The notes beneath the pieces were generated by a model. The model was not told the DNA's origin. It was given only the letters and a program-made list of their open reading frames with translations, and did no database searches. The position numbers and the translations under genes are program-made. From an uncultured Clostridia bacterium (GTDB lineage: Bacteria > Bacillota > Clostridia > TANB77 > CAG-508), in the NCBI GenBank assembly GCA_947627485.1, contig CANQWF010000001.1:8101-72100 (forward strand): a stretch of 64,000 nucleotides of DNA, given 5' to 3'. Positions 38,069 through 44,430 of this stretch are shown here, in pieces (position 1 is the first letter of the stretch; each line of letters starts with the position of its first letter).

Positions 38069-39496
38069 TTGAGAAATTTATTAGAAAAATGTAAGAATAT
38101 ATATAATAAGGAAACACCTTTAAAAACAGAATGGATAATAGCTATATTAATAGCAATTATCATGATGGTAATGTTTGTTTATTTGGATTTTAAAAGCTTG
38201 ACAATATGGAGTACAAATATATTAGACTGTATAGCAAATGGAGATATAACTCAGTTTTATTCTTATACAGCATTAAATAAGTATAATGTACCACATCAAT
38301 ATGTATCAGGGACTTTATATAGTTTAATACTATGGTCAATATGGAATATTCCTATTTGGGGAATTCAATATTTTCTCGGAAAATCAATTGTAAACAATGC
38401 TATTTTATTGATATGGTCAAAATTGTTTTTGGTTTTATCATTAGGAATAACTTTATTTGTAACTTATAAAATCTGTAAAGAACTATTTAAAGATAAGAAA
38501 AGGTCCCTATGGATTACTTTTTTATCAGCAACATTTATATATACTTATATAGGGGTTTTTTATGCGGGTCAGAATGACATTATGATATGTATGTTTGCTA
38601 CTTTAGGGTTATATTATTTGATAAAAGAGAAAAATATATGGTTCTATATATTTTCCGCACTAGCAATATCAATAAAATATTTTTATTTAATACCATATAT
38701 TCCACTAATATTATTAACGGAAAAAAAGATATGGAGAATTGTTCTCAAATTGGGAGTTGGTGTAGCACCCATAGTAATATTTAAGCTTTTAGTAAGAAAT
38801 TTCCCTATGTATGCTATATCAGAAGAATCAAATCATTCAAATAGAATATTAAGTGGTTTTTTTGGCTCAGGAATAAAAGTAGCTAATGAAGTTACACTGT
38901 CGTTTTTTATATTGACTTTTATAATAATTTGTTTTATTGCATATATAACAAAGCCAAAAACCAAGCAAATTAGAAATAATTATTTGTTTTATTTTGCAGT
39001 AGCACCTATAATATTAATGCTTATGTTTTCAACAAGTTATGAGTTTTATAGACCTATTTTATTAATGCCTACTTTAATGATACTATATGGATTTAAACCA
39101 CAGCTATATAGAATAAATGTTATTTTAGATACAATTATGTCTGGATCATGTTTTATGGCAATAGTGATGCATAGTAAAAAATTATTCAGTACCAGTGCTT
39201 CAATGAAAAACTCATTATTAACAGAAATGTTAAATATTAAACAAATACAACCATTTAATTTAAGAGAGTTTTTTATCAACCTATTTGAAGGAAAATTTGA
39301 TGTGATAGCTTCTTTTGTTACTACAGTATTGTTTGCTACTTTAGGGATAATTTTAATAATCAATTATCCGAAACTAAATATTATGAATAAAGAAGAAAAA
39401 GAAGTAGAAAAACCAGAAAGATGGATAATATGGATAAGATCTTTAATGATAGTTCCAGCTATAGCATTTTTATTGTTTAATGTAATTAGTGGGTAG
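38069..39496 (+). CDS. Polytopic membrane protein (475 aa), candidate GT-C/ArnT-like polyprenyl-phosphate-sugar transferase
   Basis: ORF track; about 12 TM; location between the ABC exporter and the amino-sugar genes. The fold assignment is inference only. Confidence 0.4.
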   Translation: MRNLLEKCKNIYNKETPLKTEWIIAILIAIIMMVMFVYLDFKSLTIWSTNILDCIANGDITQFYSYTALNKYNVPHQYVSGTLYSLILWSIWNIPIWGIQYFLGKSIVNNAILLIWSKLFLVLSLGITLFVTYKICKELFKDKKRSLWITFLSATFIYTYIGVFYAGQNDIMICMFATLGLYYLIKEKNIWFYIFSALAISIKYFYLIPYIPLILLTEKKIWRIVLKLGVGVAPIVIFKLLVRNFPMYAISEESNHSNRILSGFFGSGIKVANEVTLSFFILTFIIICFIAYITKPKTKQIRNNYLFYFAVAPIILMLMFSTSYEFYRPILLMPTLMILYGFKPQLYRINVILDTIMSGSCFMAIVMHSKKLFSTSASMKNSLLTEMLNIKQIQPFNLREFFINLFEGKFDVIASFVTTVLFATLGIILIINYPKLNIMNKEEKEVEKPERWIIWIRSLMIVPAIAFLLFNVISG

Positions 39497-39512
39497 TAGG
39501 AGAAGATGAAAG

Positions 39513-40631
39513 ATGATAAGTTTTAATGTTCCACCATTTGTAGGAAAGGAAAAAGAATATATAATTAAAGCAATAGAGAATAAAAAAATATGTGGAGATG
39601 GAGAATTTACAAAAAAATGTAATCAATGGTTTTTAAAAAAAATAGGAAGTAAAATACTATTGACTACATCTGGTACAGATGCTTTAGAGATGGCAGCAAT
39701 ATTATCTGAAATAGAGCCAGGTGACGAAGTAATAATGCCATCATATACATTTTCATCAACTGCAAATGCTTTTATTTTAAGAGGAGCAAAGCTTGTGTTT
39801 GTAGATATAAGACCAGACACAATGAATATAGATGAAAGCTTGATAGAATCAGCAATAACGGATAAAACAAAAGCTATTGTTCCAGTACATTATGCAGGGA
39901 TATCATGCGAAATGGATAGGATTATGGATATAGCAAATAGGTATCACTTAAAAGTAATAGAAGATGCCGCCCAAGGGGTTATGAGTAAATATAAAGGAAG
40001 ATATCTTGGAACAATAGGAGACTTCGGTTGTTATAGCTTCCATGAAACTAAAAATTATAGCATGGGAGAAGGTGGAGGAATAATAATTAAATATCCTAAA
40101 ATATATGAAAGGGGAGAAATAATAAGAGAAAAAGGAACAGATAGAAGTAGATTTTTAAGAGGACAAGTAGATAAATATACATGGGTTGATATGGGCTCAT
40201 CATATTTACCAAGCGATATAAATGCAGCTCATTTATATGCTCAATTAGAAGTAGCTGAAGAAATAAATAATGATAGACTCAAATCTTGGAATTTATATTA
40301 TGAAAATTTAAAAGATGTTAAACAAATAGATTTACCAACAGTTCCAGAGAGCTGTGAGCACAATGCACATATGTTTTATATAAAAGTAAAAGACATTAAT
40401 GAAAGAACAAATCTAATTAAATTTTTAAAAGAAAAAGAAATAACAACAGTATTCCATTATATACCATTACATTCTGCACCAGCTGGGATAAAATATGGAA
40501 GATTTAATGGAGAAGATAAATATACAACTAAAGAAAGCGAAAGATTATTAAGACTTCCAATGTATTATGGATTAAAAGAAGAAGATATATTAAAAGTGTG
40601 CGGAGAAATTAAAAATTTCTATAAGATTTAA
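39513..40631 (+). CDS. DegT/WecE/ArnB-family sugar 4-aminotransferase
   Basis: ORF track, 372 aa; N-terminal VGKEKEYIIKAIENKKICGDGEFTKKCNQW pattern typical of WecE/ArnB. Confidence 0.8.
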   Translation: MISFNVPPFVGKEKEYIIKAIENKKICGDGEFTKKCNQWFLKKIGSKILLTTSGTDALEMAAILSEIEPGDEVIMPSYTFSSTANAFILRGAKLVFVDIRPDTMNIDESLIESAITDKTKAIVPVHYAGISCEMDRIMDIANRYHLKVIEDAAQGVMSKYKGRYLGTIGDFGCYSFHETKNYSMGEGGGIIIKYPKIYERGEIIREKGTDRSRFLRGQVDKYTWVDMGSSYLPSDINAAHLYAQLEVAEEINNDRLKSWNLYYENLKDVKQIDLPTVPESCEHNAHMFYIKVKDINERTNLIKFLKEKEITTVFHYIPLHSAPAGIKYGRFNGEDKYTTKESERLLRLPMYYGLKEEDILKVCGEIKNFYKI

Positions 40632-40672
40632 AATTAAAAACTGAAAAATATTATAAAAAGGAAGTACAAGAA

Positions 40673-42791: not shown

Positions 42792-42795
42792 AAAA

Positions 42796-43746
42796 ATGAA
42801 GAAGATTAGTTTCATAATTCCTTGTTATGGAAGTGAAGAGACAATAGAAATAGTAATCAATGAAATACGAAATGTAATAACAAAAAAGAAAGAAAATTAT
42901 GATTATGAAGTTATTGCAGTTAATGATAATTCACCAGATAATGTTTGGAATGTACTTAAGAAAATCGCACAAAATAACCACAAAGTAAAAATTATTTCCC
43001 TTGCAAAAAATATGAATAGACCAAGTGCATTAATGGCAGGAATGTCTCATGCTACAGGTGATTATATTATTTTAATGGATGACGACGGACAATGCCCAAT
43101 GGAAAAATTGTGGGATTTAATAAAACCATTAGAAGATGGACATGATGTATCTATTGCAAAATATCCAAAATACAAACAAAGTTTATTTAAAAGTTTTGGA
43201 ACTATAGTAAATAGGAAAATGACAGAAATAATAATGGAAAAACCTAAAGACTTAAATTTTACTAATTTTACAGCAGTAAAAAGATACATTGTTGATGAAA
43301 TAATAAAATATAAAAATCCATATCCATATATGACTGGATTATTACTTAGAACAACAAGTGATATTGTAAATATAGAAATGGAAGAGAGAGAAAGAATATC
43401 AGGTAATACAAATTTTACTTTTAAAAAAATGTTAAAATTATGGTTAAATGGATTTACTGCATTTTCTATAAAGCCTTTGCGTATCTCTTCATTTATTGGA
43501 TTTTTGTGTTCTGTTTTTGGATTTGTTTTTGGAATAATAACAATTATTCGTAAATTAATGATTTCAAATATTAGTGTTGGATGGAGTAGCATCATATCTG
43601 TTTTATTGTTTGTAGGAGGCATTATAATGTTAATGTTAGGAATCATTGGAGAATACATTGGAAGGATATATATAAGCATCAATAATTCACCACAATATGT
43701 AATAAAAGAAAAATATAATATTGATGAGAAAAAAGGAGATATATAA
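42796..43746 (+). CDS. GT2 polyprenyl-phosphate sugar transferase (ArnC/GtrB-like) with C-terminal TM helices
   Basis: ORF track, 316 aa; IIPCYG...NDNSPD...DDDGQ plus two C-terminal TM segments. Confidence 0.75.
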   Translation: MKKISFIIPCYGSEETIEIVINEIRNVITKKKENYDYEVIAVNDNSPDNVWNVLKKIAQNNHKVKIISLAKNMNRPSALMAGMSHATGDYIILMDDDGQCPMEKLWDLIKPLEDGHDVSIAKYPKYKQSLFKSFGTIVNRKMTEIIMEKPKDLNFTNFTAVKRYIVDEIIKYKNPYPYMTGLLLRTTSDIVNIEMEERERISGNTNFTFKKMLKLWLNGFTAFSIKPLRISSFIGFLCSVFGFVFGIITIIRKLMISNISVGWSSIISVLLFVGGIIMLMLGIIGEYIGRIYISINNSPQYVIKEKYNIDEKKGDI

Positions 43747-44093
43747 TGAAAAAATCAAAATTTAAAGATTATATATTATTACATATAGTATTATTTATGT
43801 TTTCATTTTGTAGTGTATTCTCAAAATTGGCGGCAGGTAACCCATTTTTATCATTCAAGTTTTGTCTATTTTATGGAATATCGATAATAATCTTAGGAAT
43901 ATATGCACTGTTATGGCAACAAATATTAAAAAAATTTACATTAACAACAGCTTTTTTAAATAAATCAATAACTATTATATGGGGGATTGTTTGGGGTGCA
44001 TTATTTTTTAATGAAGGTATAAAACCTCAAATGATAATAGGTGCTATAGTTGTTTTTATAGGTGTAAGTTTGGTGGTGATGGCAGATGAATAA
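43746..44093 (+). CDS. SMR/DMT-like 4-TM protein, ArnF-like flippase subunit
   Basis: ORF track, 115 aa; paired overlapping paralog downstream. Confidence 0.55.
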   Translation: MKKSKFKDYILLHIVLFMFSFCSVFSKLAAGNPFLSFKFCLFYGISIIILGIYALLWQQILKKFTLTTAFLNKSITIIWGIVWGALFFNEGIKPQMIIGAIVVFIGVSLVVMADE

Positions 44094-44430
44094 CATACTT
44101 TTATATACAGGTATATATATTTTTGGAGTAATAATATCAGCTGTTGCGCAAGTATTATTAAAAAAGTCTGCAAATATAAAACAGGAAAATATAATAAAAG
44201 AATATTTAAATTGGAAAACAATAATCTCATATTCAGTGTTTTTTATAGCAACTCTATGTACAGTTCTATCGTATAAATATTTACCATTATCATTTGGACC
44301 AATATTGGGAACTTTAGAGTATTTATTTGTAGCAATACTAAGTTATTATTTCTTAAAAGAAAAAATAAAGAAGAAAAAATTAATTGGACTATTTATAATA
44401 TTAATAGGAATATTTATTTATTCTATATAG
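44086..44430 (+). CDS. SMR/DMT-like 4-TM protein, ArnE-like flippase subunit
   Basis: ORF track, 114 aa. Confidence 0.55.
   Translation: MNNILLYTGIYIFGVIISAVAQVLLKKSANIKQENIIKEYLNWKTIISYSVFFIATLCTVLSYKYLPLSFGPILGTLEYLFVAILSYYFLKEKIKKKKLIGLFIILIGIFIYSI

Follow-up and report, generated by a model that had tools for sequence, protein, structure and literature searches.

A predicted transmembrane glycosylation cassette for an N-acylated 4-amino-4,6-dideoxyhexose in a teichoic acid locus of an uncultured Clostridia bacterium

Results

Organization of the locus

The DNA analyzed here (the window) is a stretch of 64,000 nucleotides from an uncultured Clostridia bacterium (contig CANQWF010000001.1, positions 8,101 to 72,100; G+C content ca. 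25%). On its plus strand, a module of seven open reading frames (ORFs), with rmlA and rmlB directly behind it, encodes a polytopic membrane protein of 475 residues (M475), an aminotransferase, an ATP-grasp ligase, a short-chain dehydrogenase/reductase (SDR), a family 2 glycosyltransferase (GT2), and two small membrane proteins, Eam1 and Eam2 (Table 1). An initial annotation, made from the sequence alone, had placed the nine genes in this order and read them as an Arn-like pathway that decorates a teichoic acid with an amino sugar; the seven ORFs of the module were recovered at the positions it gives, on the plus strand, with rmlA and rmlB behind them. The start codons are backed by homologues of equal length, whose alignments begin at residue 1.

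The module is a co-directional, tightly packed block within a ribitol-phosphate teichoic acid operon. Intergenic spacing ranges from 4 to 41 bp, and three gene pairs overlap (GT2/Eam1 by 1 nt, Eam1/Eam2 by 8 nt, and RmlA/RmlB by 13 nt). Between positions 27352 and 47528 all sizeable ORFs with a family match lie on the plus strand, and a search of that strand from 30000 to 48400 returned no terminator-like sites; at 25% G+C, the scan for σ70 promoters and terminators is informative solely for this absence of terminators. The flanks bear out the Gram-positive teichoic acid setting that had been proposed, since they encode TarI, a TarJ-like protein, three Glyphos_transf proteins (CDP-alditol phosphotransferases), TagG and TagH, and a LytR-CpsA-Psr (LCP) family ligase. 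MurF and Ddl are also encoded downstream of the module, beyond rmlB. TagG and TagH form the exporter of the polymer that presumably serves as the acceptor.

Table 1. Features of the window, beginning with the module and its flanks (positions are those of the window)
Feature	Position	Strand	Family or best evidence
M475, polytopic membrane protein, 475 aa, TTG start	38069-39496	+	Predicted GT-C-fold glycosyltransferase
WecE-type pyridoxal phosphate aminotransferase, 372 aa	39513-40631	+	WecE equivalog
ATP-grasp ligase, 368 aa, GTG start	40673-41779	+	ATP-grasp_4, L-amino-acid-ligase-like
Extended SDR, 330 aa	41799-42791	+	Epimerase domain
Membrane-anchored GT2, ArnC/GtrB/DPMS type, 316 aa	42796-43746	+	Glycos_transf_2
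Eam1, half-size drug/metabolite transporter (DMT)/EamA protein with four transmembrane (TM) helices, 115 aa	43746-44093	+	EamA
Eam2, half-size DMT/EamA 4-TM protein, 114 aa	44086-44430	+	EamA
RmlA/RfbA, glucose-1-phosphate thymidylyltransferase	44463-45347	+	TIGR01207
RmlB/RfbB, dTDP-glucose 4,6-dehydratase	45335-46297	+	TIGR01181
TarI-type ribitol-5-phosphate cytidylyltransferase	27352-28065	+	350.6 bits, cutoff 166
TarJ-like alcohol dehydrogenase	28058-29074	+	
TarL-like protein	29112-30368	+	Glyphos_transf
TarB-like protein	30395-31561	+	Glyphos_transf
GT2-Glyphos_transf fusion	31692-34016	+	
TagG permease	36552-37283	+	ABC2_membrane
TagH ATPase	37309-38037	+	ABC_tran; TagH models 240.9/204.2 bits, below equivalog cutoffs 538/320
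LCP-family glycopolymer-peptidoglycan ligase	46452-47528	+	LytR_cpsA_psr, E = 3e-33; TIGR00350, 83.7 bits, cutoff 62.3
Second ATP-grasp, split ORFs	34032-34496 and 34546-35316	+	PRK12767-like; among polymer-synthesis genes
DesI/VioA-like 4-aminotransferase	35318-36442	+	314 bits versus DesI, below cutoff 650
GtrA-family flippase	9191-9634	-	
UDP-GlcNAc 2-epimerase	9653-10816	-	
Polytopic protein, 583 aa	10743-12494	-	DUF6020
GacJ-type membrane protein	12543-12890	-	DUF2304
GT2 without TM helices, 237 aa	12892-13605	-	
TagA/WecG	13602-14327	-	
O-antigen-ligase/Wzy-like protein	16457-17803	-	
Wzx	17822-19342	-	
TagO/WecA-like GT4-family transferase	20516-21607	-	
345-aa protein	22355-23392	-	No Pfam match
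MBOAT protein, adjoining the 345-aa protein	23411-24943	-	
FkbH/HAD-like protein	25207-26652	-	
Bro-N domain protein, between Ddl and an HD-domain protein	50296-51129	+	
SbcD-like metallophosphoesterase	51807-52952	+	
SbcC-like AAA protein	53494-55389	+	
tRNA-Arg (CCT)	715-791	+	
Bacterial small signal recognition particle (SRP) RNA	2281-2377	+	

Predicted supply of a dTDP-activated amino sugar

RmlA (451.8 bits on TIGR01207, cutoff 360.65) and RmlB (485.2 bits on TIGR01181, cutoff 365.1) both pass their equivalog cutoffs, in line with the role of supplying a deoxythymidine diphosphate (dTDP)-4-keto-6-deoxyhexose that had been assigned to them. The aminotransferase belongs to DegT_DnrJ_EryC1 (E = 6.6e-87), scores 613.7 bits on two WecE equivalogs (NF008687, cutoff 375, and TIGR02379, cutoff 434.85), and is 62% identical to WecE of E. 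coli K-12 over its full length (376 columns). It had been described as of the WecE/ArnB type; the WecE half of this description holds, but the ArnB equivalog (NF008658, cutoff 631) is not reached (193 bits). As a WecE homologue, the enzyme is predicted to convert dTDP-4-keto-6-deoxy-D-glucose to dTDP-4-amino-4,6-dideoxy-D-galactose (dTDP-Fuc4N), the stereochemistry of the product being part of the prediction. A route from glucose-1-phosphate through dTDP-glucose and dTDP-4-keto-6-deoxy-glucose to dTDP-Fuc4N is established as firmly as sequence can establish it.

The ATP-grasp ligase and the SDR

Assignment of the next protein to the ATP-grasp ligases was confirmed (ATP-grasp_4, E = 6.7e-27). 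Its closest solved relatives are the L-amino acid ligase BL00235 (3vot, 6.4e-31), 4dim, and BacD (ca. 1e-10), and its score on the BacD equivalog is 47.2 bits (cutoff 850). Among orthologues, identity is at least 63% for the ATP-grasp and at least 73% for the SDR, over more than 120 clusters in each case. We compared 86 loci that encode an ATP-grasp (52-91% identity), using for each count the loci with enough flanking sequence. Of 62 loci, 54 have WecE within 6 kb, and in 36 it is the gene immediately upstream; GT2 was found within 6 kb in 48/61, and the EamA pair was detected in 35/61.

The usual order of the related genes in Ruminococcus and other Clostridia metagenome-assembled genomes is WecE, a gene of ca. 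180 codons, GT2, Eam1, Eam2, one to three M475 relatives, RmlA, and RmlB. The product of the ca. 180-codon gene is a GNAT N-acetyltransferase (Acetyltransf_3, barely WecD-like at E = 6e-4), which is fused to WecE in one locus (L011; L-numbers are labels of the related loci compared with the window), and this commoner cassette is predicted to deliver N-acetylated Fuc4N (Fuc4NAc). In the window, L001, and L066/67, as well as in L002, the ATP-grasp takes the GNAT slot, and the SDR comes next wherever the contig reaches that far. Because it replaces the GNAT, adjoins WecE, and resembles L-amino acid ligases, we predict that the ATP-grasp joins a carboxylate to the 4-amino group of dTDP-Fuc4N as an N-acyl substituent. 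The N-acylating role proposed in the initial annotation is thereby supported. The acyl group may be an amino acid, a tentative identification to which we give slightly less than an even chance.

The slot is variable in other ways. In L009 (12521-13884) it holds a MaoC dehydratase and a GNAT-like protein, L001 has an extra membrane Acyl_transf_3 protein (12547-13623) between WecE and the ATP-grasp, and in L081, L083, L085, and L093 a second, divergent ATP-grasp (28% identity) lies downstream of the first. Such variability suggests that one and the same sugar receives a range of N-acyl or O-acyl decorations.

The SDR is of the epimerase/dehydratase class, as had been proposed: it matches Epimerase (E = 4e-25), contains GxxGxxG and YxxxK motifs, and in an AlphaFold2 model with a predicted local distance difference test score (pLDDT) of 83.5 it is most similar, by Foldseek, to the nucleoside diphosphate (NDP)-sugar enzymes GalE, RmlB, UXS, WbpP, and WbmG. 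A scan of the NCBIfam equivalogs gave no match to the SDR, and the ArnA model gave 16.6 bits (cutoff 777). Directly after the ATP-grasp, an SDR gene was found in only 8/68 loci, all closest relatives of the window; elsewhere a second ATP-grasp or nothing stands there. Going by its modeled fold, we predict an accessory tailoring enzyme of the NDP-sugar epimerase, dehydratase, or reductase type, and C-2 or C-3 epimerization and oxidation or reduction of the acyl group are possible reactions. It could also be an SDR-type L-threonine dehydrogenase that works on an aminoacyl group, but the fold search puts NDP-sugar enzymes first. Domain scans of all ORFs of the module detected neither a formyltransferase nor a deacetylase.

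GT2 and the EamA pair

GT2 carries a Glycos_transf_2 domain (E = 1.1e-31) and C-terminal TM helices at approximately residues 233-293. In phmmer searches it aligned over its full length, C-terminal TM region included, with GtrB (5ekp, 9.8e-40, residues 3-309) and ArnC (9hwj, 1.5e-35). It is 28% identical to E. coli ArnC over residues 1-305 with the DxD motif kept, and hhalign gave 100% for the same pair. The best NCBIfam matches, PgfS (167.9 bits, cutoff 500) and ArnC (NF007986, 143.8 bits, cutoff 529), both fall below cutoff. These matches place GT2, by family and fold, in the ArnC/GtrB/DPMS type. The description of GT2 as ArnC-like with C-terminal TM helices is therefore upheld as regards full-length ArnC/GtrB homology but not as regards the ArnC equivalog, and the protein is best called a homologue, not an orthologue, of ArnC. 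It is predicted to be a polyprenyl-phosphate glycosyltransferase that makes an undecaprenyl phosphate (Und-P)-linked sugar, presumably the acylated one. A PgfS/PgfE/PgfM system was considered and rejected, since GT2 is the only protein with a match, far below cutoff, and the PgfE and PgfM models have none.

Eam1 barely passes the EamA cutoff (28.3 versus 28.2 bits, E = 2.4e-6), and Eam2 matches EamA at E = 1.9e-10. The sole NCBIfam match of Eam1 is ArnE (E = 1.3e-3); Eam2 matches ArnE (E = 1.6e-3) and ArnF (E = 4.7e-3), both far under cutoff. In bits, the small proteins score 18.9 and 18.6 on the ArnE equivalog (cutoff 92), and ArnF gives 17.4 (cutoff 99). Searches of the Protein Data Bank (PDB) with phmmer gave weak matches to NIPA2 and EmrE or none. 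Family profiles, built from 64 (Eam1) and 73 (Eam2) syntenic orthologues, were compared with E. coli proteins using hhalign. The Eam1 profile matched ArnE at 96% over columns 16-113, EmrE at 72%, and ArnF at 18%; the Eam2 profile matched ArnE at 89% over its full length, EmrE at 78% over just 41 columns, and ArnF at 15%. The two profiles matched each other at 97%, indicating paralogues. Eam1 sits directly between GT2 and Eam2 in most related cassettes where it was detected, and the pair is kept immediately 3′ of GT2 in dozens of loci.

We predict that Eam1 and Eam2 are two subunits of an Und-P-sugar flippase. The suggestion that they resemble the ArnE/ArnF flippase thus survives in part: both are closer to ArnE than to EmrE, but the likeness to ArnF is not borne out and no Arn cutoff is passed. 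An orthologous ArnE plus ArnF pair was rejected on these grounds, both proteins being ArnE-like.

M475 has the fold of GT-C glycosyltransferases

No family was matched by M475 at cutoff in Pfam and NCBIfam scans. Weak matches were obtained to GT87 (21.8 bits, cutoff 25; found in 6 of 49 family members) and to Pfam EpsG (E = 2e-4), while YfhO, PMT_2, DUF2142, DUF6020, and DUF6056, which are Pfam GT-C families, gave no match. Three homologues (P0011, P0013, and P0014) bear a precomputed PF26314.1 tag that was not reproduced with Pfam-A; they, too, yielded weak GT87 matches only.

An AlphaFold2 model computed from a 49-sequence alignment (pLDDT 92.7; predicted template modeling score 0.93) is all-helical, with ca. 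12 TM helices and without a large soluble domain. When the PDB was searched with this model using Foldseek, matches with a probability of at least 0.5 were exclusively GT-C enzymes or GT-C-like subunits, the best being ALG12, ArnT, ALG6 (TMq 0.56), ALG3 (TMt 0.61), GPI-MT-I, PIG-U, STT3, ALG9, EmbB, and PimE. Membrane proteins other than GT-C had probabilities of 0.2 or less, and Wzy, WaaL, and SEDS proteins were absent from the top 50 matches. The Foldseek E-values are modest, ca. 1e-2.

Conservation among the 49 homologues is consistent with this fold. Residue D40, directly after the first TM helix (TM1, residues 19-35), is invariant, D53 is at least 90% conserved, and Q168, D170, K203, K219, and R328 are invariant or almost so. 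The N-terminus is rich in lysine and arginine, amphipathic helices span residues 39-68, and the positive-inside rule would put D40 in the first extracytoplasmic loop. GT-C enzymes bear a catalytic acid just after TM1, and D40 probably contributes to catalysis.

We conclude that M475, as modeled, has a GT-C fold, and we predict from it that the protein transfers a lipid-linked sugar to an extracellular acceptor. The initial annotation had offered it as a possible ArnT-like GT-C transferase; the fold part of this proposal stands, and the relation to ArnT in sequence does not. Comparison of the M475 profile with E. coli ArnT in hhalign gave 0.2%, and, there being no PMT or PMT_2 match either, membership in ArnT/GT83 was rejected, leaving likeness at the level of fold. 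Assignment as a Wzy/EpsG polymerase was rejected in view of the GT-C matches in Foldseek and the synteny. The initial annotation had also named an outcome that would speak against it, namely, generic EamA or small multidrug resistance (SMR) proteins lacking Arn likeness together with a 475-residue protein lacking a GT-C fold; what was found is an ArnE-like pair and a GT-C fold.

M475 founds a GT-C family for which Pfam and NCBIfam have no model. A profile search of 1.84 billion representatives returned 1,537 family representatives at 50% identity, 729 of them below 1e-30. The closest homologue in a species representative, 77% identical, is from a rabbit-gut metagenome-assembled genome. For FtsZ, a cluster of sequences with at least 90% identity has one member labeled Oscillospiraceae.

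Conservation and exchange of cassette components

In 61 species-representative loci of the M475 family, neighbors were counted within 6 kb, with GT2, Eam1, and Eam2 required on the same strand. The GT2-Eam1-Eam2 set was found beside the M475 relative in 36 loci, WecE in 34, and RmlA in 27. In L021 (5064-9700), L028 (9911-14800), L037, and L048, which are Ruminococcus/Clostridiales loci, two or three tandem M475 paralogues, 29-37% identical to M475 of the window, stand after a single GT2/EamA set, with up to three in L021 and L028. In such an arrangement, a single lipid donor could supply transferases that differ in acceptor or linkage.

Conversely, an M475-family partner was present in just 6 of the 86 ATP-grasp loci. 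The six-gene donor cassette adjoins unrelated GT-C-type proteins elsewhere, which match YfhO (L155), PMT_2, or DUF6056 or are unmatched in Pfam. In L068/L069 (7890-14229) the full donor cassette stands beside a DUF2142-type membrane protein, and the ATP-grasp is labeled Candidatus Saccharibacteria; identity to the window is 73% for WecE, 67% for the ATP-grasp, 74% for the SDR, 65% for GT2, and ca. 60% for the EamA pair. Such values are unusually high for phyla this distant and suggest horizontal transfer. Overall, WecE, GT2, and the EamA pair, together with a gene for N-acylation, make up a cassette that is found repeatedly in both gut Firmicutes and Saccharibacteria, with interchangeable GT-C partners.

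Identity of WecE stays at 64-84% across cassette types, whereas that of GT2 tracks the acylating enzyme (65-80% in cassettes with ATP-grasp and SDR, 46-52% with GNAT, and 36-39% with ATP-grasp only). Because GT2 diverges with the acylating enzyme while WecE holds steady, GT2 appears to read an already acylated sugar, which would place acylation before lipid loading.

As to the surroundings of M475, a Tar/Tag operon encloses its gene in the window, L001, and L066/67. The gene comes directly after TagH in the first two, which also have an LCP gene behind the module, and it comes after TagG in L066/67.

Other features of the window

A second ATP-grasp/aminotransferase pair (34032-36442) lies upstream of TagG. 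The ATP-grasp is interrupted by a single-base frameshift near position 34479, and removal of one base restores the frame (...GQGSK/GCVIANNKKELLYY..., the slash marking the junction); it is either a pseudogene or an assembly error. The adjoining aminotransferase is 32% identical to the WecE copy. This pair suggests a second N-acyl amino sugar, perhaps of the 4-amino-4-deoxyquinovose (Qui4N) type, for the main chain.

On the minus strand, genes at 9191-13605 form a second, canonical multi-component glycosylation set, so that a GtrA-type system coexists with the ArnE-like one. Next to it, 13602-26652 holds a Wzx/Wzy-type polysaccharide cluster that includes linkage-unit genes and, in addition to the proteins in Table 1, GT2, GT4, and Glyphos_transf proteins; a role in O-acylation, or one like that of Dlt, is conceivable for its MBOAT set. 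The Bro-N protein is in an odd place for a phage-associated domain, and G+C content falls to 18-20% over 52-56 kb. An Rfam scan of the whole window returned nothing beyond the tRNA and the SRP RNA, two ordinary housekeeping genes near its start.

Discussion

Proposed mechanism

We propose, with a probability of roughly 0.7, that the genes at 38069-46297 encode a self-contained multi-component ("three-component") transmembrane glycosylation system that uses a dTDP-derived 4-amino-4,6-dideoxyhexose. In this scheme, RmlA and RmlB would make dTDP-4-keto-6-deoxy-D-glucose, which WecE would transaminate to dTDP-Fuc4N. The ATP-grasp would spend ATP to activate a carboxylate, an amino acid being the likeliest, and amidate the 4-amino group of Fuc4N, taking the place of the acetyl-coenzyme A-dependent GNAT, and the SDR would tailor the nucleotide sugar or its acyl group. 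GT2 would then move the N-acyl sugar from dTDP onto Und-P, the ArnE-like 4-TM pair would flip the product to the outer leaflet, and M475 would attach the sugar to an extracellular acceptor. The likeliest acceptor is the TagGH-exported ribitol-phosphate polymer, which would afterwards be fixed to peptidoglycan by the LCP ligase. For teichoic acid as the acceptor, gene order in the window, L001, and L066/67 tips the balance slightly past even.

Several points weigh against the scheme. The cassette is known from genes alone, and its donor, acyl group, and acceptor are all read from them. No component reaches an Arn-family cutoff; the likeness of the EamA proteins to ArnE is weak at the hidden Markov model level (E ca. 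1e-3), with no specific likeness to ArnF, and the SDR is without an assigned step. A nearby GT2/EamA set is missing from 25 of the 61 M475-family loci. Finally, some loci (e.g., L156) have the donor cassette outside a teichoic acid context, and the acceptor need not be teichoic acid.

The same machinery may indeed act on another acceptor, such as lipoteichoic acid, the polysaccharide of the Wzx/Wzy-type genes (minus strand, 9.6-26.6 kb), or Ser/Thr-rich surface proteins, as in the Pgf system of streptococci. The best NCBIfam match of GT2, to PgfS of the S. mutans protein-glycosylation operon, would suit the last of these, although the score is far under the cutoff and PgfE and PgfM are unmatched. 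Location of the same donor cassette away from teichoic acid genes in L156 and L068, the second polysaccharide cluster in the window, and the free swapping of GT-C partners among cassettes also favor a different acceptor. We nevertheless consider it unlikely, though worth keeping in view, since only a few genes at most separate M475 from TagG/TagH in the window, L001, and L066/67, and an LCP gene comes after the module in the first two of these.

It is improbable that the ATP-grasp and the SDR act off the sugar, on a peptide or a peptidoglycan-related amide, with Fuc4N being loaded with a free amine or acylated by an unlinked enzyme. The closest solved relatives of the ATP-grasp do form dipeptides, and our literature searches turned up no biochemical example of an ATP-grasp that modifies an NDP-aminosugar; yet the enzyme is tied to WecE in most loci, it occupies the GNAT slot in otherwise collinear cassettes, and GT2, unlike the constant WecE, diverges according to which acylating enzyme is present. 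The NDP-sugar-type fold of the SDR points the same way.

Still less likely is that M475 is a Wzy/EpsG-like polymerase, a WaaL-like ligase, or some other polytopic protein, the true transferase being encoded elsewhere: the weak EpsG match, the lack of a family at cutoff, and the modest Foldseek E-values leave room for this, but they are set against confident matches confined to GT-C enzymes, which use polyprenyl-phosphate donors, and GT-C-like subunits, an invariant D40 at the usual place of the GT-C catalytic acid, synteny with GT2 and the EamA pair, tandem paralogues, and export of the polymer by an ABC transporter, which makes Wzy unnecessary. An equally remote idea, prompted by analogy with ArnA formylation and ArnD deformylation and by the pull that transamination needs and acylation supplies, is that the N-acyl group is a temporary protecting group whose removal after lipid loading would leave free cationic Fuc4N on the polymer, but the module and the conserved cassette contain no ArnD-like deacylase or polysaccharide deacetylase, and spending ATP and an SDR on a discarded group is unlikely.

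Significance

If acylated Fuc4N is transferred outside the cell as we propose, the cassette would extend Gram-positive extracytoplasmic decoration to N-acylated 4-amino-6-deoxy sugars that come from a dedicated dTDP pathway. The general logic of multi-component transmembrane glycosylation is known already, and the window presents a variant of it with a dTDP-aminosugar donor. New elements are the ATP-dependent ligase in place of an acetyltransferase, the ArnE-like flippase pair, and the profile-less GT-C family. In our literature searches, neither the cassette nor an ATP-grasp that modifies Fuc4N or Qui4N came to light, and those on viosamine and on teichoic acid GT-C systems likewise gave no account of the cassette. 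The donor cassette is strongly conserved and, with interchangeable GT-C partners, widespread in gut Firmicutes and Saccharibacteria; it is therefore probably a frequent determinant of surface chemistry that annotation has missed, and phage receptors, immune recognition, and surface charge are likely to be affected.

A charge-modifying role is an attractive possibility. The ATP-grasp might add an amino acid with a free alpha-amino group, giving a stable, amide-linked cationic group on teichoic acids and other wall polymers, a doubtful but consequential idea. If this is true, the group would be a functional counterpart, in Gram-positive bacteria and Saccharibacteria, of 4-amino-4-deoxy-L-arabinose (L-Ara4N) on lipid A and of the labile D-alanyl esters introduced by Dlt. 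Many uncultured gut anaerobes would then use the cassette to adjust their surface charge, their resistance to cationic peptides, and their recognition by phages. The ligase would be the first known ATP-grasp with a nucleotide-activated amino sugar as its substrate, and its partner would be a GT-C family that had gone unrecognized. The enzymology is tractable, as the soluble enzymes are all small and the substrates can be prepared from dTDP-glucose.

Comparison with known systems

The module has the traits of a multi-component system, namely, a GtrB/ArnC/DPMS-type GT2, a co-encoded GT-C with an acidic residue after TM1, and a small multi-TM flippase candidate. As in CsbB/GtcA/YfhO, GtlA/GtlB, GttA/GttB, GacI/J/K/L, and CsdAB/CflA, GT2 would charge Und-P, a small protein would flip the product, and the GT-C would attach the sugar to an exported polymer. 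In Listeria serovar 1/2a, extracytoplasmic glycosylation of ribitol-phosphate wall teichoic acid is carried out by such a GT-A/flippase/GT-C system (PMC8035078). The characterized Gram-positive systems add only Glc, Gal, or GlcNAc, from uridine diphosphate (UDP)-sugars, and their flippases are of the GtrA or Wzx type (PMC8035078, Table 1; PMC7389260). Unlike them, the cassette of the window has its own dTDP pathway (RmlA/B and WecE), an ATP-grasp for a predicted N-acylation, an SDR, an ArnE-like half-DMT pair replacing GtrA, and a GT-C without a Pfam family.

The three-component systems that add pentofuranose side chains to O antigens (GT136) also have 4-TM ArnE/EmrE-like flippase candidates and a new GT-C family (PMC11127046). 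They resemble the module in decorating an ABC-exported polymer after export, in the type of flippase candidate, and in a family-founding GT-C, and they differ in that the donor is made from phosphoribosyl pyrophosphate by a phosphoribosyltransferase, the hosts are Gram-negative, and neither an amino sugar nor acylation is involved.

The dTDP-Fuc4N route is the same as in the Fuc4NAc branch of enterobacterial common antigen synthesis (RffH/RffG/WecE/WecD), and in the commoner cassette a GNAT stands in for WecD. In the enterobacterial pathway, WecF uses dTDP-Fuc4NAc in the cytoplasm, on a repeat unit linked to undecaprenyl pyrophosphate, whereas the sugar of the window is predicted to be put singly on Und-P for extracellular transfer. 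Like the L-amino acid ligases BL00235 and BacD/YwfE, the ATP-grasp would activate a carboxylate as an acyl phosphate that is attacked by an amine; unlike them, its predicted nucleophile, read from synteny alone, is the 4-amino group of a nucleotide sugar. Chemically, amino acids in amide linkage to amino sugars are known from E. coli O antigens (PMC7685785).

In gene content, the closest parallel is the Arn pathway (PmrHFIJKLM), which likewise combines a DegT-family aminotransferase, N-acylation before loading, an ArnC-type GT2, two small 4-TM proteins, and a GT-C. The module differs in its predicted use of a dTDP-6-deoxyhexose instead of a UDP-pentose, which dispenses with the ArnA decarboxylase, and in having an ATP-grasp instead of a formyltransferase and no ArnD deformylase. 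Its GT-C is unrelated to ArnT/GT83 by sequence, both of its small proteins are ArnE-like, and its predicted acceptor is a Gram-positive polymer, not lipid A. The term Arn-like, as used in the initial annotation, is thus apt for the architecture of the module but not for the family membership of any component, and the analogy is one of architecture only.

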